A DNA stretch of 64,000 nt from positions 32,001-96,000 of IMG/VR virus record IMGVR_UViG_3300037111_000040, one strand, 5' to 3'. The translations under genes and the position numbers were made by a program. The notes under the pieces are model-generated. The model had not been told where the DNA came from. It saw nothing but the letters and a program-made list of their open reading frames with translations, and ran no database searches. How positions within the stretch are numbered: the first letter of the stretch is position 1; each line of letters opens with the position of its first letter. The DNA is from a virus. This document shows, piece by piece, positions 1,034-64,000 of this stretch.

Positions 1034-3202
1034 TTGGGATTTGCAGCAGCAGTCGCTTGGGAGGCGACTGAACCGGGAGAGAACGAAGGCCGCGTGCCGC
1101 CAGAACTCGAAACAATCAGATGGCAAGTTCCCGGCTGGGAAGCCAGAGCGAGCGACAAGATCGCATGGATCGAAGAGCAAATAAAAGAGGGTGAGGGATA
1201 TCTTAGCAATCAGCCCTCGTACACGAACCTCACGCGCAATCTTCGCATTTTTGACGGCATATTCAAGGACAAAACAAAGTCTTCTCTCGTCACGAACCAA
1301 CTGAAATACAACATCAGAAAATTCTGTGAGACACTCGCTGAGGTCCGTGAAATCGCCGGATTTTCGAGCGATGTTCCGGCCTACAAACCGATGGCTGAGA
1401 TGCTCACGAAGGTCTCGAAGTGCGTCTACATCGAGTCCGACTTCCCGTACCAAATCCTCAGAGTCCTGCAATACGCGACCGTGATGGGTATCGGATATTT
1501 GTGGCCGAAAGTCGTCCCCACTGAGTACGGGTTCGGCCCGCGCGAGATGCGCTTCGATGCGCTCGGATTGCTGGACGTTGTCCCTGTCCAGATTCCTTCG
1601 CGAAGCAACGACGTGCAGGACGCCTATGCGGTCACAATCTACGACTACATGCCGATTGCTGAGGCGTATGCAAAGTTCCCGTTGTTCCAAGGCCAATTGC
1701 AGACAGTCGGGAGGAACAACTACAAGACGCTGATGCAAGCCCAGCGGCAGGATTTTGCGGCGACGTGGCGCTACGGAAGCATTGCAGAGACGCAAAGCCG
1801 CAGCTTCGGAAACCTCTACACCGAGATCAGGTACACGTTCATCCGCGACATACGGATCAACACGACAGACAAAGAAATGTTGATGGGCGATCCCGGAACG
1901 ACGTGGTTTTACAAGGTCCCTTACCTTGGTCAAGAAATTTTTGGAGGGATGAGAAATGGGCAACCTTACTATCGCCCTGCAATGGTGGAGGATTGCCGGA
2001 TTTACCCCAATCTCCGGCTCATTATATCTTCCGGTGGACTCGACAGGCCGATGTACGACGGCACTTCATTCGATTGGGATTCCAAGATTCCGATCATCCA
2101 GTACACGGTAGACGACTGGGCGTGGGAAGCGCTTGGACGCTCGCTTGTTGGGAACGTGGCGTCGATTGAGTCGACGATCCGCAAGCACGAGCGCCTCTTC
2201 GATCAGGTTCTCTCGGCTAGGCTCAATCCGCCGATGGGCTACGACTTGGACAGCACTGGTGGACCGAAGGTCGAACACTTCGACATCTTCGAGCCCGACG
2301 TGCGCCTCGGATTGGCGGGCGGCGAGCCGAGTAAAACATTCCAGTCGATCCTTCCAAAAGAGGTTGATGTAGGCGCAGAGAATCGCGAATTTTTGAAGTA
2401 CCTCGGCGATAAGGAACTCGCGCAACTTGGCCTCAATGACGTTGGAAACTTGGCCAACATCAAGCTGAACATCGCCAACGAAACAGCCGACAAGATGCTG
2501 GAGTCGATTGGTCCCATCGCGAAGGGAATCGCGATGAGAATCGAGAAGGCCAACAAGCGCGTTGGCGAAAGACTCAAGTTCCTTATCCCGCAGTGGTTCG
2601 ATGCGGCGAGGCTCATCGATTACGTCGGACAAGACAATATCGCCAAGGAAATGTTTGACTACGATCCGAGCCAGATGGTTCCAAGCCACTTACCGGATGA
2701 ATTCATCAGCGGTCTCTATCCGGAGACAAAGTCTCGCTATGACTTGACAACCAGAGCAAAGTTCTTCGTCAAGAAGCTGAGGCTCATATCTGTACCGAGC
2801 ATGTTGCTGAAGATCACGGCCATGCAGGAGCAACTGAAGTTCCTGCAATTAAAGCGGTCTCCAGATTGCCCGATCAGTTGGGACACGGTATTCAAGAAGC
2901 TCGACATTGCCAATCCAAAAGAAGAGATGCAAAAGTATTTCAAGGAGCAGTTAGAGCTTACGAAGATGAAGCTTCTAGCGGCGGCTCTCGCTCAGCAAGA
3001 AATGAAGAAGCTTGGTCTGCAACCTCCAGAAGAAGGCGGAGGCGCTGGCGGAGGCAAGGGTGGTGGCGGCAAGGGAGGAGGCGGTGGAGGTGGAGCACCA
3101 CACGCCGGAGGCCGTCCACCTTCAGGTCAGCGTGGGCCGAGGCTCGCGCAAAAAGGCGGAGCAGGCGGTGAGGCGAGAACGGTTGTGAAGGAATCGAGTT
3201 AG
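1034..3202 (+). CDS. Portal protein with Gly-rich C-terminal tail (start uncertain)
   Basis: About 720 aa, helical, between terminase and scaffold/MCP; size fits P22-like portals. Confidence 0.75.
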   Translation: MGFAAAVAWEATEPGENEGRVPPELETIRWQVPGWEARASDKIAWIEEQIKEGEGYLSNQPSYTNLTRNLRIFDGIFKDKTKSSLVTNQLKYNIRKFCETLAEVREIAGFSSDVPAYKPMAEMLTKVSKCVYIESDFPYQILRVLQYATVMGIGYLWPKVVPTEYGFGPREMRFDALGLLDVVPVQIPSRSNDVQDAYAVTIYDYMPIAEAYAKFPLFQGQLQTVGRNNYKTLMQAQRQDFAATWRYGSIAETQSRSFGNLYTEIRYTFIRDIRINTTDKEMLMGDPGTTWFYKVPYLGQEIFGGMRNGQPYYRPAMVEDCRIYPNLRLIISSGGLDRPMYDGTSFDWDSKIPIIQYTVDDWAWEALGRSLVGNVASIESTIRKHERLFDQVLSARLNPPMGYDLDSTGGPKVEHFDIFEPDVRLGLAGGEPSKTFQSILPKEVDVGAENREFLKYLGDKELAQLGLNDVGNLANIKLNIANETADKMLESIGPIAKGIAMRIEKANKRVGERLKFLIPQWFDAARLIDYVGQDNIAKEMFDYDPSQMVPSHLPDEFISGLYPETKSRYDLTTRAKFFVKKLRLISVPSMLLKITAMQEQLKFLQLKRSPDCPISWDTVFKKLDIANPKEEMQKYFKEQLELTKMKLLAAALAQQEMKKLGLQPPEEGGGAGGGKGGGGKGGGGGGGAPHAGGRPPSGQRGPRLAQKGGAGGEARTVVKESS

Positions 3203-50554: not shown

Positions 50555-51789
50555 TTCACCGCGTCCCGAAACCACTTCTCCCACGCAACCCAATTGTTCT
50601 TCCACTCGTAGCGCGGATCGAGATGCGTTCGCTTTCCGATCCATTCGTTCGCCTTCGCCGCCCAATTTTCTGCGTTGTAAACAGGGCGCTTGGTGCCAAA
50701 TGATCCCGCATGGTAAAACGCTGCACTTCCCGAACCGTCAACCATCGGATCGACTTGCATTTCCTTTGGGACAAAATCCGCTGCGCCAGCGTAAGAGCCA
50801 GTGATCACGGGAGTGCCGCAGGCGAGACTTTCGGCTAACGGGAGTCCAAAACCCTCGGGTCCGATTCCGAGCATGAGGTCGCAGGCGGATAGTGCTTCTG
50901 CCATTTTTTGATCGGTAATTTGGCCCAAGCTGATTATCGTTTTGTCGATCATCCCGTAGTCGCACAATAGCGCTGGTATACTCCAAAATCGCTCGAATGC
51001 ATCTGTGTGCGCCCAAAGGCGGACCTTGCGATTTCTGGCAAGTATCGCCGCCGTTTCGATACCCAACGCCCAATTTTTGCGATCCTGATTTGTGGCGACT
51101 ATGGAAATCAGGCATTCATCTTCCGTGATGGGGCCGTGATCCTCCATAATCTGCTGCCCGCCCGTGATCTGGAAGAACATGTGACGGCAAAGAGCGCGGT
51201 TTCTCTCGTAAAAGACATCGCCATCAAAGCCGTGTGGCAAATTTGTCAGATGACGCTCAGCCGCTTGCTTATCGCCGATGGTTCTGCATAGGACGCCTTC
51301 ACCAAACGGACCGTAGGCCAGCAGACGGTCGAAGCCCAGCGCCGTCCGCATAAGGGGAAACGAGAGCCTGTCGTTCGGGCCTGAGCCGTCTATTGGCACG
51401 TACCCAAAGAGCTTGAACGGACGTTTGACGAGCCACTGGCGCAATTCCGGATTCTTGAGCACGGCGGCTTCAGAGTATTTTGGCTGCGCAATCCAATCTA
51501 AGCGCGATAGGTCCCAAATAGTGCAGATGATACCCGGTTCGTTCCCAGCAAAATCCTCCCAGACTTCAGGAAGTGTTGGGATGGCCCACTCCTGCATTCC
51601 CTCGATCACATAATTTACGAAACCGAATCTGCGGGAGCCCGGTCCGCCGTGGCCTAAGACTCCGACTCTGTAGACATCCGTCAAATGCTCGTGCGCCCTT
51701 GTCGTGAGGTCTCGGCATATCCTGCCGAGGCCACTCGACGATGACGGACTATCGGAAATAAAGAGGAGCGGCGTGGGTTGCTCAGCCAT
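50551..51789 (-). CDS. GT-B (GT4-like) glycosyltransferase
   Basis: 'SDSP...SGLGR','NQDRKN','EGFGLPLAESLACGTPVI'. Confidence 0.85.
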   Translation of the reverse strand: MAEQPTPLLFISDSPSSSSGLGRICRDLTTRAHEHLTDVYRVGVLGHGGPGSRRFGFVNYVIEGMQEWAIPTLPEVWEDFAGNEPGIICTIWDLSRLDWIAQPKYSEAAVLKNPELRQWLVKRPFKLFGYVPIDGSGPNDRLSFPLMRTALGFDRLLAYGPFGEGVLCRTIGDKQAAERHLTNLPHGFDGDVFYERNRALCRHMFFQITGGQQIMEDHGPITEDECLISIVATNQDRKNWALGIETAAILARNRKVRLWAHTDAFERFWSIPALLCDYGMIDKTIISLGQITDQKMAEALSACDLMLGIGPEGFGLPLAESLACGTPVITGSYAGAADFVPKEMQVDPMVDGSGSAAFYHAGSFGTKRPVYNAENWAAKANEWIGKRTHLDPRYEWKNNWVAWEKWFRDAVK

Positions 51790-51796
51790 GCGCTTG

Positions 51797-51825
51797 AAGA
51801 TAGTTTGGATGCTGTTCACTGTCAA
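51797..51825 (-). promoter_or_regulatory. Sigma70 promoter giving a leaderless GT operon transcript
   Basis: TTGACA-17-TATCTT-7 nt-ATG on the minus strand. Confidence 0.7.
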
Positions 51826-51879
51826 GTGAATAAAAGATCGCAATTGACACAAAAACTGCTTTGTGAAACAGTATCGTCC

Positions 51880-53926: not shown

Positions 53927-53955
53927 TTGACAACCCACCAATTCCATGGAATGAT
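53927..53955 (+). promoter_or_regulatory. Promoter of tRNA operon 1
   Basis: TTGACA-17-AATGAT with TG extension. Confidence 0.65.
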
Positions 53956-53964
53956 GGTTTCGCT

Positions 53965-54033
53965 ATGAAGACAGTGTGCCTCAGTTCGCTCTCCTCGTAT
54001 AGCTCATTACTGAGCGGTGGCGGGGGTTCGTGA
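53965..54033 (+). CDS. Leader peptide 1 MKTVCLSSLSSYSSLLSGGGGS (putative attenuator)
   Basis: Codons 5-17 are all Cys/Leu/Ser/Tyr, matching the downstream tRNAs. Confidence 0.8.
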   Translation: MKTVCLSSLSSYSSLLSGGGGS

Positions 54034-54062
54034 ACTGAGTCCAAAGTGGAATTCAGTCAGCG

Positions 54063-54087
54063 GCCTCCGAGAAATCGGGGGCTTTTT
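54063..54087 (+). terminator. Attenuator terminator before tRNA operon 1
   Basis: GCCTCCGA-GAAA-TCGGGGGC-TTTTT. Confidence 0.85.
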
Positions 54088-54094
54088 AGTTTGT

Positions 54095-57802: not shown

Positions 57803-57844
57803 AACCTCTTGACAAATTCTGCGCTTTCCTTCACTATGCTGAAT

Positions 57845-58297
57845 ATGACGTAGATCGATTCCAAGACGTACTTTTACCTCTTCGTTCGGCAAGACCTCCC
57901 CATCGCTGCACAGATCGTGCAGACGAACCACGCGACATTTGATATGGCTTACACGCTCACCCAGAGCGCCGATCCTTCTACGCCTTCCATCGTGCTCATA
58001 GGCGTTCCCGACAAAAAAGCGCTTCACAAGGTAATCCAGAAGCTCAAGCTGAATCGCATCGAGTTCTCGGAGTTCCACGAGAGCGATGACGATCTGGGAC
58101 TCACTGCGGTCGCGACGATTCCTCTCGACGAGGATCAGCGCGCGGTGCTCCAGAACTACAAGCTTTGGAACGAAAACAATTTGACATACGCGCCTAGCTC
58201 AGTGGTCAGAGCGCCGTTGCAGTCTGACGGAGGTCCGAGGTTCGAATCCTTGGGCGCGTACCAACGGGCGGATAGCTCGACTATGCAGGAGGTGTGA
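57845..58297 (+). CDS. Peptidyl-tRNA hydrolase Pth2-like, interrupted by in-frame TAG at codon 3
   Basis: ATG ACG TAG ATC GAT... in frame with 'YLFVRQDL..AAQIVQTNHA...IVLIGV...E.D..LTAVAT.P...YKLW'. Confidence 0.75.
58188..58263 (+). tRNA. tRNA-like element with aberrant anticodon loop (GCAGTCT; nominal AGT)
   Basis: Perfect acceptor, D (TAGCTCAGTGG..AGAGC) and T (GGTTCGAATCC) arms and CCA; no U33 or purine 37. Confidence 0.7.
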
Positions 58298-59182: not shown

Positions 59183-59887
59183 TTAAAGGTACTTTAGATT
59201 ACATTCATCGCAATGCCATGTGGTTGATGGGCTTTTGCAGGCGACACACAGCCCTTTCATCCGAATGGCGCGAGTTCGCTCGCTTGTTCGTTTGGCGTTA
59301 GCTTCGCGACAGAGATCGCATCTACATCTGTGATAGGTATAGGTCGTGGTGACACCATGTATTGGCTTTGGTTTTACTCGTGGAGGCAAGGATGCCCGCG
59401 AGAGAGCATCACAAGAGAAGCCAAGCAATCCGGCTATTTGCCTCACCGTTTTCCCGTCATTTCGCAGCGATTCTATTTCAAGGATGTTGGCTCGAATCTT
59501 CTCTGAATTAGATTGACGAGCGGAAGATGAACCGACAATCTGGCGCACATATTCTCTTGTAAAACCGTATTTATTCCCAATTTTTTGCAGTGTCCAACCA
59601 TCCCTACGGAGGACTTTCATTTCCTCTCTGCGCGGATCGGCAGGTTTGGGTGGTATGGAGGCCCCAAGATCGTAGAATCCTGCCAACTCTCTGTTTAATC
59701 CCGGCCCATTATCAACGTGCCACTTGCTGTGACAAAATAAGCAAAGCCAACGCACATCTAGTGGTCTTGCATAATCGTCGTGGTGGGCGACAAGCCGTCG
59801 CTGTGCCCCACATTCTTCGCATAAGAGCGCGATTGTAATGCTTCCACGCTCAACCGCTGCTTTGACGAGTAGGTGAACGCGGGCCAT
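59183..59887 (-). CDS. HNH-like endonuclease with HTH and Zn-finger modules
   Basis: 'CEECG...AHHDDY..PLDVRWLC..CH..WH'; 'TLQKIGNKYGFTREYVRQI'; 'CRCDLC'. Confidence 0.8.
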   Translation of the reverse strand: MARVHLLVKAAVERGSITIALLCEECGAQRRLVAHHDDYARPLDVRWLCLFCHSKWHVDNGPGLNRELAGFYDLGASIPPKPADPRREEMKVLRRDGWTLQKIGNKYGFTREYVRQIVGSSSARQSNSEKIRANILEIESLRNDGKTVRQIAGLLGFSCDALSRASLPPRVKPKPIHGVTTTYTYHRCRCDLCREANAKRTSERTRAIRMKGLCVACKSPSTTWHCDECNLKYL

Positions 59888-59903
59888 TTTTTTCAAAAAC
59901 CTC

Positions 59904-59932
59904 TTGACAGTTTTCCTGATTGATTATATCGT
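59904..59932 (+). promoter_or_regulatory. Promoter of tRNA operon 3
   Basis: TTGACA-17-TATCGT, 7 nt before the GTG of the leader. Confidence 0.75.
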
Positions 59933-59939
59933 GGAAAAC

Positions 59940-60011
59940 GTGAGAACCCGATTCCATAACGCAGCGACACAGCCGACGCAACCAGCCGGTAATAGCGGCG
60001 GTGCGGACTAG
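59940..60011 (+). CDS. Leader peptide 2 MRTRFHNAATQPTQPAGNSGGAD (putative attenuator)
   Basis: Codons 2-18 are all R/T/F/H/N/A/Q/P/G, matching the downstream tRNAs. Confidence 0.8.
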   Translation: MRTRFHNAATQPTQPAGNSGGAD

Positions 60012-60053
60012 GGGTCTCAGACAGATTTTTTCCTAACACAGATGGAAAAACTT

Positions 60054-60093
60054 GAGACCCCCAGAACCGAAAGGAACTGGGGGTTCTCGTTTG
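60054..60093 (+). terminator. Attenuator terminator before tRNA operon 3
   Basis: ACCCCCAG..CC-GAAA-GG..CTGGGGGT-TCTCGTTT; left arm can alternatively pair with TAGGGGTCTCAG. Confidence 0.7.
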
Positions 60094-60102
60094 TGGGGAT
60101 GT

Positions 60103-60177
60103 TCAAGGGTAGCTCAATGGTAGAGCCCACGGCTGTTAACCGTGTCGTTGTGGGTCCGACTCCCACCCCTTGAGCCA
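60103..60177 (+). tRNA. tRNA-Asn(GTT)
   Basis: Loop CTGTTAA, G73, CCA. Confidence 0.88.
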
Positions 60178-60187
60178 GTTTAGAAGT

Positions 60188-60263
60188 TGGCTCTTCGTTC
60201 AATGGTTGAGGACCTTCGCCTCTGGAGCGAATGATCTGGGTTCGAGTCCCGGAGAGCCAGCCA
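60188..60263 (+). tRNA. tRNA-Gln(CTG)
   Basis: Loop CTCTGGA, U1-A72, CCA. Confidence 0.88.
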
Positions 60264-60275
60264 AGTTTGAGTTGT

Positions 60276-60349
60276 TCCCGGTTCGTTCAGTGGCAGGACG
60301 TGGGCCTTTGGAACCCAACACGGGAGTTCGATTCTCCCACCGGGTGCCA
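60276..60349 (+). tRNA. tRNA-Gln(TTG)
   Basis: Loop CTTTGGA, CCA. Confidence 0.85.
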
Positions 60350-60350
60350 C

Positions 60351-60424
60351 GCGGGGTTGATGTAGCGGTAGCATCGAAGTGTGCCACACTTTGCGCATCG
60401 GTTCGAACCCGATACCCCGCTCCA
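60351..60424 (+). tRNA. tRNA-Gly(GCC)
   Basis: Loop GTGCCAC, U73, CCA. Confidence 0.85.
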
Positions 60425-60503
60425 CTTTGGAGGAAGAAGAATGAAGATCGATTTGAACGCCGACATGCAGCATGTTTTCGCACGGTTGGCGAAAGGATTT
60501 CGA

Positions 60504-60578
60504 GCACCGTTAGTTGAGTCGGCACAACACGACCCTCGTAACGTCGAAGCCCCGGTTCGATTCCGGGACGGTGCTCCA
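60504..60578 (+). tRNA. tRNA-Thr(CGT)
   Basis: Loop CTCGTAA, CCA. Confidence 0.82.
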
Positions 60579-60611
60579 CAGATTGACGAGAGGTAGAAGA
60601 AAGGGGATTCC

Positions 60612-61157
60612 ATGGCACTCATACGGAGAGCGGTACTACAACTTAACGCGTCGTATGAGCCGCTGAGAATCGTCAGCGCGCGAAAGGCGCTCACGCTCAT
60701 AACCAAGGGCGTTGCCGTGGTGGAGGTGCCAACCAGCATCCAAGTCCACAAGGGAATCTACCTTCCTTCCGTCATCCGTTTGCGGCACTACAGGAACGTC
60801 CCGCACCGGATGCAGCAGGTTTCGAGGAAGAACATTTTCATTCGCGACGGTTTCAGGTGCATGTACTGCGGCGCGAAGAAGAACAACGGGGCAGAGCTTG
60901 AACTGGAGCACGTGATCCCGAGAAGCAGAGGTGGTAAGCAGTCATGGGACAACCTTGTTGCTGCCTGTTCCCCGTGCAATAGACGTAAGAACAACCGGAC
61001 GCCGGAAGAGGCTGGAATGAAGTTGATCCATAGGCCGCTGCCCGCGAATATCTTTACAAGCCGCTTCATTTTGAAACAGCTTGGCAGAGAAGTTGAGGAA
61101 TGGGGAAAGTTCCTTTTTTCTGATTCCGAAGGCGAAACGAGGTTACAATTTAGGTAA
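60612..61157 (+). CDS. HNH endonuclease (McrA-like)
   Basis: 'LNASYEPL','PSVIRL','RD.F.C.YCG','EHVIPRSRGG..SWDNLVAAC..CN.RK'. Confidence 0.9.
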   Translation: MALIRRAVLQLNASYEPLRIVSARKALTLITKGVAVVEVPTSIQVHKGIYLPSVIRLRHYRNVPHRMQQVSRKNIFIRDGFRCMYCGAKKNNGAELELEHVIPRSRGGKQSWDNLVAACSPCNRRKNNRTPEEAGMKLIHRPLPANIFTSRFILKQLGREVEEWGKFLFSDSEGETRLQFR

Positions 61158-61160
61158 AAG

Positions 61161-61883
61161 ATGCGCAAACTCGTCGGCAAAATTTACTTAATTCGTAATC
61201 TCGCGAACGGCAAGGGGTACGTCGGCCAGACCACGAAACAAACTGTGTGGATAAGGTTCAACCAGCACAAATACGAGGTCAAGCGCGGAAGCAATCTGCC
61301 CATACATAGGGCGATGAGAAAGTGGGGAGTTGAAAACTTCACAGTTATCGAAGTCGCCTCGTGTGATCCACTTTTGCTCGACGATCTCGAAAAGCACTTC
61401 ATCAAATTCTACAAAACCTACATCACAAGCGGTCGCGGCTATAACAGGACGGCAGGAGGGTACAGCGGATTCAACAGAGACGGAATCAGGATTCTTACAG
61501 AAAAGGGAAGCTCGACACTTTCAGATGTCCATAAGGGAAACTCTTATGCCAAGGGGCACAAAGTATCGGAAGAAGGAAGAGCGAGAATGGCCGAGGCTGC
61601 TAGAAATAGAGGACCGGTAACGCGCTCGCCAGAGTTGAGGGCCAGAATCTCGGCCACCTTGAAAGGACACCCTGTTGCAGAGGAATCGAGAGCGAAGATG
61701 TCAGCGTCGCACAAGGGGGTAAAAGTCGGCTACCGGAAACGCAGGCCGATGTCGGATGAGCACAAGGCGAAGATTTCCGCGAGTATGCGTGGAAAGAGGA
61801 AAACTCCGGAGTCCATAGCCAAGAGACTTGCGACTTGTGCTTTGCTTAACACGGGTGACACAAGATACCAGTTTGTTAACTAA
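61161..61883 (+). CDS. GIY-YIG homing endonuclease with NUMOD3 repeats
   Basis: 'KIYLIRNLANGKGYVGQT','GYN.T.GG', repeated 'SEE.RAKMS.S.KG'. Confidence 0.9.
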   Translation: MRKLVGKIYLIRNLANGKGYVGQTTKQTVWIRFNQHKYEVKRGSNLPIHRAMRKWGVENFTVIEVASCDPLLLDDLEKHFIKFYKTYITSGRGYNRTAGGYSGFNRDGIRILTEKGSSTLSDVHKGNSYAKGHKVSEEGRARMAEAARNRGPVTRSPELRARISATLKGHPVAEESRAKMSASHKGVKVGYRKRRPMSDEHKAKISASMRGKRKTPESIAKRLATCALLNTGDTRYQFVN

Positions 61884-61927
61884 CATAAATGTTCGTTATC
61901 GTCTCCAAATTTTGCTATACTCGGGAG

Positions 61928-62653
61928 ATGAAAAACGAAGAAAGGCGAAAAGCTGCTCGGAGGCGGTGGTACTACAGGAACAGGAAATCCAAGAAGGTGT
62001 TGAAGTCGCGAATTCCTGACGTACCGCTGCTTTCTGTTGAGGAACGTAAGACTATTAGCAGGGCGAATGCTGTGGTTGCGCTGGCGAAAGCTCATGCTAA
62101 AGCAAAAATCAAATCGGATCAGATACAACGTAAGAGAGAAGAGCGTCGATGCGTAATTTGCGGCGGTCCTGTTCTCGTTAAGAATCTGAAAGCAAAATCG
62201 TGCTCGGTGAGATGCGCGAAGATCGCCAGACGAAAAAGAAGAGAGAATTGGGAAAAGGCTTGCGCGTACTGCGGTTCCACATGTTCTGGTCAGAACAAGT
62301 ATTGCGACGACTGCAACAAAAGCCAAATCTACAAGATGGCTCAGTCTACTGAAGATGTAAGCGATTCAAAGGCTGTCAAGCGTCTGGTGCTTCGGAGAAG
62401 AGGACACAGATGCGAAGGATGCGGTTTAGATCAGTGGATGGGAAAAGCCATCCCGCTTGAACTTCACCATGTGGACGGGGATTCAGAGAATAACAAAGAT
62501 GAGAACCTGCAACTTCTCTGTCCTAATTGCCACGCTTTGACTCCAACGTTTCGTAATCGAAACAAAAGGAAGGCGAGCGAAAGAAGAAGAAAGATAAGAA
62601 AGACGAGAGAGTTTGCCGAAGTAGCTCAAGAGGAAGTAGCGGCGGTTTTGTGA
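61928..62653 (+). CDS. HNH endonuclease
   Basis: 'CEGCG...LELHHVDGD..NN..ENLQLLCPNCH..T'. Confidence 0.88.
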   Translation: MKNEERRKAARRRWYYRNRKSKKVLKSRIPDVPLLSVEERKTISRANAVVALAKAHAKAKIKSDQIQRKREERRCVICGGPVLVKNLKAKSCSVRCAKIARRKRRENWEKACAYCGSTCSGQNKYCDDCNKSQIYKMAQSTEDVSDSKAVKRLVLRRRGHRCEGCGLDQWMGKAIPLELHHVDGDSENNKDENLQLLCPNCHALTPTFRNRNKRKASERRRKIRKTREFAEVAQEEVAAVL

Positions 62654-62690
62654 ACCGCTGATGGGATTTCGAGTATCCCCTTCGGCCCCA
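62615..62690 (+). tRNA. tRNA-His(GTG) copy 1 (no encoded G-1)
   Basis: Loop TTGTGAA, C73, CCA. Confidence 0.75.
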
Positions 62691-62773
62691 AGCTCACTGG
62701 GACACGCGGAATCTCCCGCTTACGGGCGGGAGGGTGCTACCAAGCTATAACGTGTCCCGGTAGCGCGATTCAT

Positions 62774-62852
62774 GGCGGTGTTGGCAGAGCGGTCTATTGC
62801 GCGTGTCTGTGGCACACGTATTACATCGGTTCGAATCCGATACGCCGCCCCA
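62774..62852 (+). tRNA. tRNA-His(GTG) copy 2 (G-1:C73)
   Basis: Loop CTGTGGC, CCA. Confidence 0.85.
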
Positions 62853-62861
62853 AAGTTTTAC

Positions 62862-62937
62862 GGGCCTATAGCTCATTTAGGAGAGCGCCGCACTTGCAAT
62901 GCGGAGGCGGTCGGGGCGGAGCCGACTAGGTCCACCA
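62862..62937 (+). tRNA. tRNA-Ala(TGC)
   Basis: G3:U70, loop CTTGCAA, atypical T loop. Confidence 0.85.
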
Positions 62938-63032
62938 AGTTTGACTGGTGCCTCACCTGTAACGACGTAAGGGTGAAGGCGTCACGGGTCGCACGTCGCA
63001 AGGTAGAGGCCCGCTAAGTTTTTAGGAGAAAT

Positions 63033-63281
63033 ATGCGTCAATTCATAAAGCGATCCGAGCGCGGTTTTTCTCAGCGAAGACATGAGGGAGATTTGCGTAG
63101 GAGAAAGCAGTTCGCAAGCAAGATCGCGGATTGTTTCTTTGCTGAGAGTCCTTTCCAGCGGATGCTCATGAGGTGTGGACGCGCTCGGAAGCTGATGCAG
63201 GCATATCGCGCGAAGAAGATGATTCGCAGGCCGAGCAACTTTCGGCAGGATGTTTGGCAAGAGTTTTGTCGATTGAGCTAG
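63033..63281 (+). CDS. Arg-rich hypothetical protein
   Basis: AGGAG RBS; stop lies inside tRNA-Phe. Confidence 0.45.
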   Translation: MRQFIKRSERGFSQRRHEGDLRRRKQFASKIADCFFAESPFQRMLMRCGRARKLMQAYRAKKMIRRPSNFRQDVWQEFCRLS

Positions 63282-63343
63282 TGCAGTCATAGCGTCCGCC
63301 TGAAGAGCGGAAGAACTCGGGGCAGCACCGGGAGTCGACACCA
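63268..63343 (+). tRNA. tRNA-Phe(GAA)
   Basis: Loop CTGAAGA, atypical T loop, CCA. Confidence 0.78.
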
Positions 63344-63344
63344 T

Positions 63345-63421
63345 CGGGGAGGGGCGCGGTCAGGTAGCGCTTCGGTCTCGGGTACCGAAGGTCATGGGTT
63401 CGAATCCCATCTCCCCGACCA
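63345..63421 (+). tRNA. tRNA-Pro(CGG)
   Basis: Loop CTCGGGT, CCA. Confidence 0.85.
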
Positions 63422-63434
63422 TTTTGGAAGTCAC

Positions 63435-63511
63435 ACGGGTGTAGCGAAGTCTGGAAACGCACCTGCTTTGGGAGCAGGGGATCGGGGGTTCAAATCCCTC
63501 CACCCGTACCA
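63435..63511 (+). tRNA. tRNA-Pro(TGG)
   Basis: Loop TTTGGGA, CCA. Confidence 0.88.
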
Positions 63512-63521
63512 TTTTGAATGA

Positions 63522-63598
63522 GGGCCTATAGCGTAGTTGGATGACGCGGCAGACTACGAATCTGTTATACGGGGGTTCGAATCCCTCTAGGCCCTCCA
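63522..63598 (+). tRNA. tRNA-Arg(ACG)
   Basis: Loop CTACGAA, CCA. Confidence 0.88.
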
Positions 63599-63617: not shown

Positions 63618-63646
63618 TTGACGCGTTTTTGGAACCGTTGTAAGGT
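63618..63646 (+). promoter_or_regulatory. Sigma70-like promoter for the ncRNA repeat cluster
   Basis: TTGACG-17-TAAGGT. Confidence 0.55.
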
Positions 63647-63677
63647 TAGAGACGTTGCGTTTTTGAGATTGAGTTTT

Positions 63678-64000
63678 CGCTGACTGTTTGGCTTACATGC
63701 GCCTCAAAGCGAGGCATTTCAATTGAGATGAAACGAACCGGGTGCGATTCCCGGATGTCCCGAAAGGGTTGCCTGACGACTACAGCGGAGAAAAAAATTG
63801 GCTTGACTGATTTGCATACATGCTTTGAGAGCAGGAACACCATGCAGATCGACTACAAGCCATAAAGTTTGTGCTGACTGACTTGCTTACATGTCCTTTG
63901 GAGACCGAGGTCGGAGGTTCGAATCCTTCATCCTCCACCATCAAAGAATTGACGGGGGATTAGCTCAGCGGTAGAGCGCGTAAAATAGCAGATCGACTAC
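63678..64000 (+). ncRNA. Three tandem Y-RNA-like ncRNAs; the third has a permuted tRNA module (YrlA-like), truncated by window end
   Basis: Units share 5' (C/T)TGACTG..GC.TACATG and 3' GC....CGACTAC ends; unit 3 has T arm and acceptor before the D arm. Confidence 0.6.

Follow-up and report, generated by a model that had tools for sequence, protein, structure and literature searches.

Leader-peptide attenuators and a probable case ahead of phage tRNA genes

The attenuators of the trp, his, thr and ilv operons, each of which depends on a leader peptide, are of a well-known kind, and the multivalent leaders of thr and ilv are the nearest in spirit to the phage leader considered here. In these amino-acid operons, as proposed for the phage, a promoter-proximal ORF contains regulatory codons, an arm at its stop codon competes with an arm of the terminator, and the position of the ribosome decides the outcome. 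The differences are that enzymes are controlled there and tRNAs here, that the present element belongs to a phage, and that the run of one or two amino acids found in amino-acid leaders is replaced by a panel of about nine amino acids and 11 anticodons, mostly represented once or twice each; the phage leader also differs in its probably leaderless start, its doubtful region 1 and its weak U-tract. In the T-box, too, a leader RNA couples tRNA charging to a choice between terminator and antiterminator. The T-box, however, makes direct contact with the tRNA, does without an ORF and has mostly synthetase and amino-acid genes as its targets, whereas the phage leader, for which the same kind of choice is proposed, would use an ORF and control tRNAs.

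Among published systems, the trp attenuation model is summarised in the available portion of a paper on Deinococcus deserti (PMC4007540), while pheL, the leader-peptide attenuator of the phe operon, appears in the available portion of another (PMC3082878). The former describes leaderless leader peptides, with the start codon at the mapped transcription start site (TSS), that precede tRNA synthetase and amino-acid biosynthesis genes and for which attenuation has been proposed (PMC4007540). So far as that partial source goes, those leaders sense one amino acid, have protein-coding targets and rest on mapped TSSs, whereas the TSS of the phage leader is only inferred. A long accessory tRNA array, the trn operon of Anabaena, is described in the portions available of two further papers as silent by default and made when translation is impaired, its control being exerted by a repressor, TrcR, on direct repeats over the -10 box (PMC8421152; PMC10272220). 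The main text of PMC8421152 nowhere uses the word leader, the word terminator or any word beginning with attenuat-, and within these limits the Anabaena case is bacterial and involves no codon matching, whereas the leader described here (leader 2) is codon-matched and belongs to a phage. A full-text search of the literature, confined to open-access main texts, returned no description of attenuators ahead of tRNA genes.

The phage and its relatives

The window, by which is meant the whole 64,000-nucleotide stretch of DNA that was analysed, comprises bases 32001-96000 of a source record of 121,714 bases, with 54.5% G+C and 36 tRNA genes. PHROG matches to portal and major head proteins identify a tailed phage, and the sequencing runs that contain its DNA carry the labels of peat, permafrost and lake metagenomes. 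There are 27 tRNA genes in the window, all on the + strand, in blocks split by HNH and GIY-YIG homing-endonuclease genes.

Neither blastn of 59850-60600 against phage records nor megablast of 30000-54000 turned up a cultured relative: the former gave 44 records matching in their tRNA parts only (none with at least 80% query cover), the latter no match. The major head protein led to 30 related viral contigs. A plain DNA search of five relatives with 59880-60430 gave no match, after which the relatives that carry the leader were reached through tRNA searches: the tRNA arrays stand in the same order in four of them, of which two are complete and two are partial and more distant, and a homologue of leader 2 is present in all four. 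A pattern search at the Asn-Gln junction returned only the two relatives already known, and a protein-based search with two ORFs adjoining the array returned none.

A loose pattern for the leader itself matched at least 116 stretches; among the 80 matches listed nearly all were due to chance, with tRNAs behind them only in known relatives. A pattern built from five sequences (the window and the four relatives) found 44 metagenome loci, of which 11 are leader-2 homologues with tRNAs behind them and 33 are chance matches. This yielded six further distinct homologues, in which the pattern dictates the promoter and the first codons and leaves everything downstream free. The comparison set thus consists of 11 sequences, the window and ten distinct homologues from relatives and metagenomes; it must be remembered that these are kin, and that a count of 11/11 does not represent 11 independent trials. 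A scan of genomes with the leader pattern gave 12 matches (untranslated), several of them in freshwater Actinomycetota, and revealed neither a prophage nor a host.

Most of the 33 rejected loci belong to one family ('MASRF...') without a + strand tRNA within 6 kb. It is abundant and conserved (L153, L177, L185, about 20 other metagenome loci and possibly some of L196-L207), and is probably an ordinary gene on the opposite strand, unrelated to the leader; its member L177, from a metagenome, and the genome locus L206 lie at the same position in contigs of equal size.

The tRNA block downstream of the leader

The genes that the leader is proposed to control, referred to below as block 2, are laid out as follows.

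60103..63598, + strand: controlled block of 11 tRNAs, interrupted by HNH and GIY-YIG genes (60612-62653)
63701..63725, + strand: terminator-like site that may end the operon

The order of the tRNAs is Asn, Gln(ctg), Gln(ttg), Gly(gcc), Thr(cgt), Thr(tgt), His, Ala(tgc), Pro(cgg), Pro(tgg), Arg(acg). An earlier, sequence-only reading of this DNA had put 12 tRNAs downstream of the leader, which has to be corrected, as ARAGORN gives 11 from the leader to where the block ends; a stretch resembling a tRNA, at 63695-63758, reaches only 20.7 bits, under Rfam's 29. No promoter-like or terminator-like site was found on the + strand within 60103..63598 in the scan.

Several other features of this region may be recorded. 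Just after the operon there is a sub-threshold match to Y RNA-like (YrlA) RNA at 63904-63985 (27.9 bits, E 0.0005). The gene for tRNA-Thr(cgt) is overlapped by a 51-codon ORF (60441-60596) whose Shine-Dalgarno sequence (GGAGGAAGAAGA) is strong. Homing-endonuclease genes lie within the tRNA operon. In five relatives (L033, at 2910-3100, and L162, L166, L173 and L176) an extra ORF lies between the terminator and tRNA-Asn, and since it sits after the terminator it would come under the control of the attenuator.

Promoter and reading frame of leader 2

The leader itself occupies about 160 nt, and its parts are these.

59904..59932, + strand: sigma70-like promoter, TTGACA, 17 nt, TATCGT (10/12 matches)
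59940..60011, + strand: leader ORF MRTRFHNAATQPTQPAGNSGGAD, 23 codons and TAG (60009-60011)
59941..59949, + strand: possible region 1 TGAGAACCC, able to pair with region 2 in the full-length minimum-energy fold
60008..60020, + strand: region 2, a G-rich arm over the stop codon, putative 5' arm of the antiterminator
60027..60050, + strand: middle hairpin TTTTTCC / GGAAAAA, stacking on the helix of regions 2 and 3
60052..60064, + strand: region 3, the arm common to antiterminator and terminator
60054..60094, + strand: terminator hairpin 60054-60088 (-21.2 kcal/mol) and U-poor tail GTTTGT

The codon string given in the earlier reading, from GTG at 59940 to TAG at 60009-60011, is exact. In the window the GTG start follows the -10 box after 7 nt, and the whole geometry (-35 box, 17 nt, -10 box, 7 nt, start codon) recurs in the window and the four relatives that were found independently of the motif; the 7-nt distance itself holds in 11/11 sequences, six of which were selected by the pattern. 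The ORF probably begins at the 5' end of the transcript, making it leaderless, with a TSS that is inferred in the absence of mapping. Against this, a GTG at the 5' terminus is a poor leaderless start in some bacteria.

The same geometry is seen elsewhere in the window, on the minus strand at 51787-51826 (CTTGACA, 17 nt, TATCTT, 7 nt, ATG), where the gene behind it encodes a 412-aa glycosyltransferase (Pfam Glycos_transf_1). The pattern of promoter, 7 nt and ATG occurs at two sites in the window, against 0 expected, which points to a use of leaderless mRNAs by the phage for ordinary genes as well. The promoter motif, AAAACCTCTTGACA, occurs a second time at 57803-57852, where ATG ACG TAG, a two-codon minigene, comes after it, and an ORF after the minigene (57917-58297), without a Pfam match, runs into tRNA-Thr(agt).

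The frame is open in all 11 sequences, over 22-29 sense codons, while frame 2 stops at codon 1 in all 11. Gaps between homologues within the ORF are mostly multiples of three, L166 having one of 4. The peptides themselves differ widely, as in MKTRFQNANPTATATPQGHGAESGSQ vs MSSRFHNFAQTPAANQPTGNRATTG, with their composition unchanged, except that an R-F-H/Q motif is conserved at the N-terminus. This motif would suit a small protein with a function of its own, the hairpin being merely its terminator and allowing some read-through. However, the remainder of the peptide is shuffled between relatives and varies from 22 to 29 residues, its C-terminal residues follow the RNA arm, and the two other tRNA blocks of the genome have the same layout with unrelated peptides, so that such a function must be rated very unlikely indeed.

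Codon content of leader 2

Simple wobble rules, applied to the 11 anticodons of block 2, show that 16/22 sense codons and 19/22 residues of the leader fit the block, the genome-wide frequencies of these sets being 0.298 and 0.459 respectively. Random 22-codon windows of long ORFs do as well in only 31/200000 cases for codons and 765/200000 for residues. As to coverage, the leader contains a cognate codon for every one of the 11 tRNAs, while random windows average 5.05 and reach 11 in 120/300000 cases. The claim that the leader codons match the downstream tRNAs is thus borne out beyond chance. The same holds in relatives, where the sense tRNAs of a complete block 2 are all sampled (11/11 in G001, G002, L164 and L162; 9/9 in L166), and the only unsampled block-2 tRNA is one reading UGA, in G001 and L166. 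This tRNA (anticodon tca; SeC according to ARAGORN) ends block 2 at 9380-9453 of L031, and in L166 at 2747 nt after the start of the leader; the genome of the window has no such tRNA.

The six of 22 leader codons that are non-cognate to the block of the window are AGA and ACC (codons 2-3), TTC, GCC, and AGC and GAC near the stop. Unmatched codons are concentrated at the two ends of the ORF, in its first 1-2 and last 4-6 codons. A ribosome stalled at those near the 3' end would mask region 2, in keeping with a non-sensing role for them, and codons 4-18 are likely to be the sensing stretch. Within this stretch, CGA to AAT, 14/15 codons fit the tRNA set of the phage family, GCC being the only exception, and 13/15 fit the block of the window itself, which is without tRNA-Phe.

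The sequence-only reading had listed AGA, ACC, ACA and GCC as having no dedicated tRNA in the window, and had proposed that relatives be checked for the missing genes. For ACA this was mistaken, as Thr(tgt) lies at 62615-62690. For the others it may be refined: a reader of AGA, Arg(tct), is present in the genome in the third block, outside the window; a reader of ACC, Thr(ggt), is absent from the phage genome and present in block 3 of relatives; and Ala(ggc) was found in none of the genomes examined. In the relatives, then, the check placed Thr(ggt) in operon 3 and Ala(ggc) nowhere, and it brought to light in operon 2 a tRNA that had not been foreseen, Phe(gaa). This explains the unmatched TTC, which the window keeps although its tRNA-Phe has gone; the leader is thus more stable than the tRNA content, which seems to be reshuffled by homing endonucleases.

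The choice among synonymous codons is a different matter. When codons were redrawn from genome usage with the peptide kept, the match of the window was equalled in 1408/20000 draws, the range over the 11 sequences being 344 to 7660/20000. Synonymous choice is thus only weakly matched, and the signal therefore lies mainly in which amino acids and isoacceptor pairs occur.

Predicted competing RNA structures

The earlier reading had claimed that a segment spanning the stop codon is complementary to the left arm of the terminator, and this is the case: 60008-60020 pairs with 60052-64 at 12/13 positions (one A.C mismatch, one G.U). The duplex of regions 2 and 3 has a predicted energy (RNAduplex) of -20.6 kcal/mol, compared with -10.1 +/- 2.4 for dinucleotide shuffles of the upstream leader, of which 1/1000 was as good. 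Region 2 is the best partner of the terminator 5' arm in 11/11 sequences; the best partner overlaps the stop codon in 10/11, and in L176 ends 11 nt before it. The duplex beats shuffles at the 5% level in 7/11, while for the other four homologues 85 to 144 of 1000 shuffles were as good. The leader as a whole also folds better than shuffles (z -2.63). That the two structures are mutually exclusive, as had been proposed, is supported in silico by the presence of an arm linked to the stop codon, together with a competing terminator, in all 11 sequences examined.

Other elements are more variable. The middle hairpin has energies of -5.7 to -12.5 kcal/mol in 7/11 sequences, with differing stem sequences, and is weak or absent in L035, L036, L173 and L176. 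Pairing of the 5' end with region 2 occurs in the full-length minimum-energy fold of 7/11 and loses to the pairing of regions 2 and 3 once region 3 is present; because the latter wins whenever region 3 exists, the role of region 1 is uncertain.

Covariation was counted on a table anchored at the C-run of region 3. In at least 10/11 sequences the core, at positions -2 to +2, is paired with region 2 in one helix and with region 4 in the other, and base changes in the shared arm are matched in both partner arms: at position -1 two sequences have the triplet T/A/T, six have T/G/C and two C/G/C, and at position +2 ten have G/C/G and L176 has A/T/A, its whole shared arm being different and both partner arms following. 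This covariation is consistent but not strong, there being few events and the sequences being related. A standard analysis (MAFFT and RNAalifold) recovered only 7 terminator pairs, two with compensatory changes, and no antiterminator, which it missed because MAFFT misaligned region 3.

As to the terminator itself, all 11 sequences have a GC-rich hairpin, with energies of -17.5 to -25.7 kcal/mol, and in the window it ends 14 nt before tRNA-Asn, which starts at 60103. However, the consensus terminator scan did not flag 60054-60088; the tail, GTTTGT, is not a clean T-run, and it is similarly broken in the homologues. The hairpin cannot be the end of a + strand gene upstream, because the adjacent gene on that side (59183-59896) runs on the minus strand.

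These shortcomings are where the locus comes closest to being simply the untranslated, structured 5' leader of a tRNA precursor, concerned with processing or stability, in which case the frame and the codon match would be coincidental or a by-product of structure. The poor U-tract and the failure of the scan to call a terminator both suit this explanation, translation data are absent, and the conservation of CGATTCC and of the G-rich arm, which is seen at the nucleotide level, could be structural. It would nevertheless have to account for a frame that is open in every sequence and always closes at region 2, for the ORF gaps being mostly multiples of three in spite of the single exception in L166, and for a codon coverage as rare in random windows as that given above. 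Nor does the leader match any known family: at the gathering threshold no T-box or other Rfam family apart from tRNAs was found in the window, and 59850-60110 gave only noise, with E values up to 10. On balance the explanation as an untranslated leader is judged decidedly unlikely.

Returning to the attenuator, the folding check proposed in the earlier reading gave a divided answer. At equilibrium the full-length RNA favours the terminator in 10/11 sequences whatever ribosome mask is applied; since these masks do not switch the structure, the switch must be kinetic, taking place during transcription. When the transcript is cut before region 4, on the other hand, region 3 is paired upstream with p=0.58-1.00 if the RNA is free or carries a footprint at codons 8, 12 or 16, and with p=0.02-0.64 if the footprint is on the stop codon. 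The cut transcript, in other words, forms the antiterminator unless a ribosome is on the stop codon.

Other leaders in the same genome

Leader 2 is not the only element of its kind in this genome, two others having the same layout of promoter, leader and terminator.

Window 53965-54033 (unit 53927-54094): leader 1, MKTVCLSSLSSYSSLLSGGGGS, ahead of Leu, Cys, Ser and Tyr tRNAs
Genome 102906-102995 (unit C1:102870-103061), outside the window: leader 3, whose block comprises Trp, Met, Lys, three Arg, Val, Ile and Gly(tcc)

In both, clean T-runs follow the hairpin, unlike leader 2, and the best partner of the terminator 5' arm coincides with the stop codon or immediately precedes it. A promoter-like site is also found at a fourth, small cluster (Met, Asp, Glu, Glu), where there is no room for a leader. 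If each leader is scored against each block, the resulting matrix is diagonal: coverage is 10/11, 11/11 and 9/9 where leader and block correspond and 1/11 to 4/11 where they do not, with leader 2 sampling 1/11 of the block-1 tRNAs and 1/9 of those of block 3. Such diagonal 3x3 matrices were obtained in three genomes, the two complete relatives giving 9/9, 11/11, 8/8 and 6/6, 11/11, 8/8.

This result bears on another possible form of control, in which the ORF is translated and gates the terminator and yet reports only general translation status (for example host shut-off or ribosome shortage), the codons being irrelevant. The logic of the structures needs only a ribosome that reaches or misses the stop codon, and the weak matching of synonymous codons would suit such a device. 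There is also a precedent, in the available portion of the source, for a tRNA array induced by general translational stress, in Anabaena (PMC8421152). Against this, three leaders in one genome have three compositions, each of which fits its own block only, and composition is kept while peptide sequence drifts, so that indifference to the codons is an unlikely explanation.

RNA-library data

Sequences identical to parts of the phage occur in four metatranscriptome runs, and one contig of 244 bases covers 59982-60210 without mismatch, extending over the terminator into tRNA-Asn and tRNA-Gln. As these libraries may contain DNA, the contig amounts to no more than a faint indication of read-through RNA. 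The data are assembled contigs, giving no ends, no strand and no information on the TSS or on any response to stalling. All four runs cover the bin 59974-60340 and none covers 59240-59606; tRNA parts attract contigs from other organisms, however, and neither coverage nor its absence supports any conclusion as to TSS or expression.

Two further observations come from these libraries. Contigs pile up at 63644-64000, and in a contig of run X21 the GGGG run at the stop codon (60011) is one G short, which is the form found in L166, implying that a close strain variant co-occurs.

Proposed mechanism and its standing

In the mechanism proposed, transcription would start at about 59940, as inferred from the promoter, and a ribosome would start on the 5'-terminal GTG and read 22 codons, of which the central 15 run from CGA to AAT. 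On reaching TAG it would cover the G-rich arm at 60008-60020, regions 3 and 4 would then be left to pair, and RNA polymerase would be expected to stop before tRNA-Asn. If instead the ribosome lagged at any hungry codon, the G-rich arm could pair with region 3 once the latter had been made, an inference to which the folding calculations lend support; with the antiterminator formed there would be no terminator, and the tRNAs, together with the intervening homing-endonuclease genes, would be transcribed. Since the product restores decoding, the circuit would amount to negative feedback on the supply of charged tRNA. It would, however, be blind to the difference between lack of a tRNA and lack of its amino acid, and in the absence of any translation the model predicts read-through rather than termination.

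How far is this supported? What one requires of an attenuator is a short promoter-proximal ORF upstream of the genes to be controlled, an enrichment of that ORF in codons linked to their product, and an antiterminator that cannot coexist with the terminator and that a ribosome standing at the stop codon would cover. The first is met, with translation not shown; the second is met and is replicated in relatives; the third is met in silico only. Two further features of such attenuators are less clear-cut here: of an intrinsic terminator ahead of the first controlled gene, the hairpin is there in all 11 sequences, with a broken U-tract and no call from the scan, and a pairing of regions 1 and 2 is seen in the full-length folds of 7/11 and gives way to that of regions 2 and 3. 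All the sequence-level predictions of the attenuator reading that could be tested have held, and that leader 2 is a ribosome-mediated transcription attenuator of the trp type, controlling a phage tRNA operon, is accordingly considered probable, in the absence of data on the TSS, RNA 3' ends, translation or stalling. The mechanism would be a known one and the class of target genes, tRNAs, new; experimentally it is unproven.

A more specific proposal is that phages use such leaders as checklists of codons, each tRNA operon being turned on independently of the others as soon as ribosomes are slow at any one of its codons, with loss of host tRNAs as the natural trigger; such loss might come about during infection through host anticodon nucleases or phage-driven turnover. 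This can be put forward only tentatively, and remains rather doubtful. If it were true, leader 2 would be the first known leader-peptide attenuator of tRNA genes, a compact part forming a circuit for tRNA replacement on demand.

How phages control their own tRNA genes, and why large phages carry near-complete sets of them, is largely unknown. Should the checklist proposal prove correct, the phage would gauge decoding capacity codon by codon and top up only what is short, and attenuation would extend from the supply of amino acids to that of tRNA. If, moreover, the trigger is the loss of tRNA through host defence, tRNA arrays would be linked to the arms race between phage and host.
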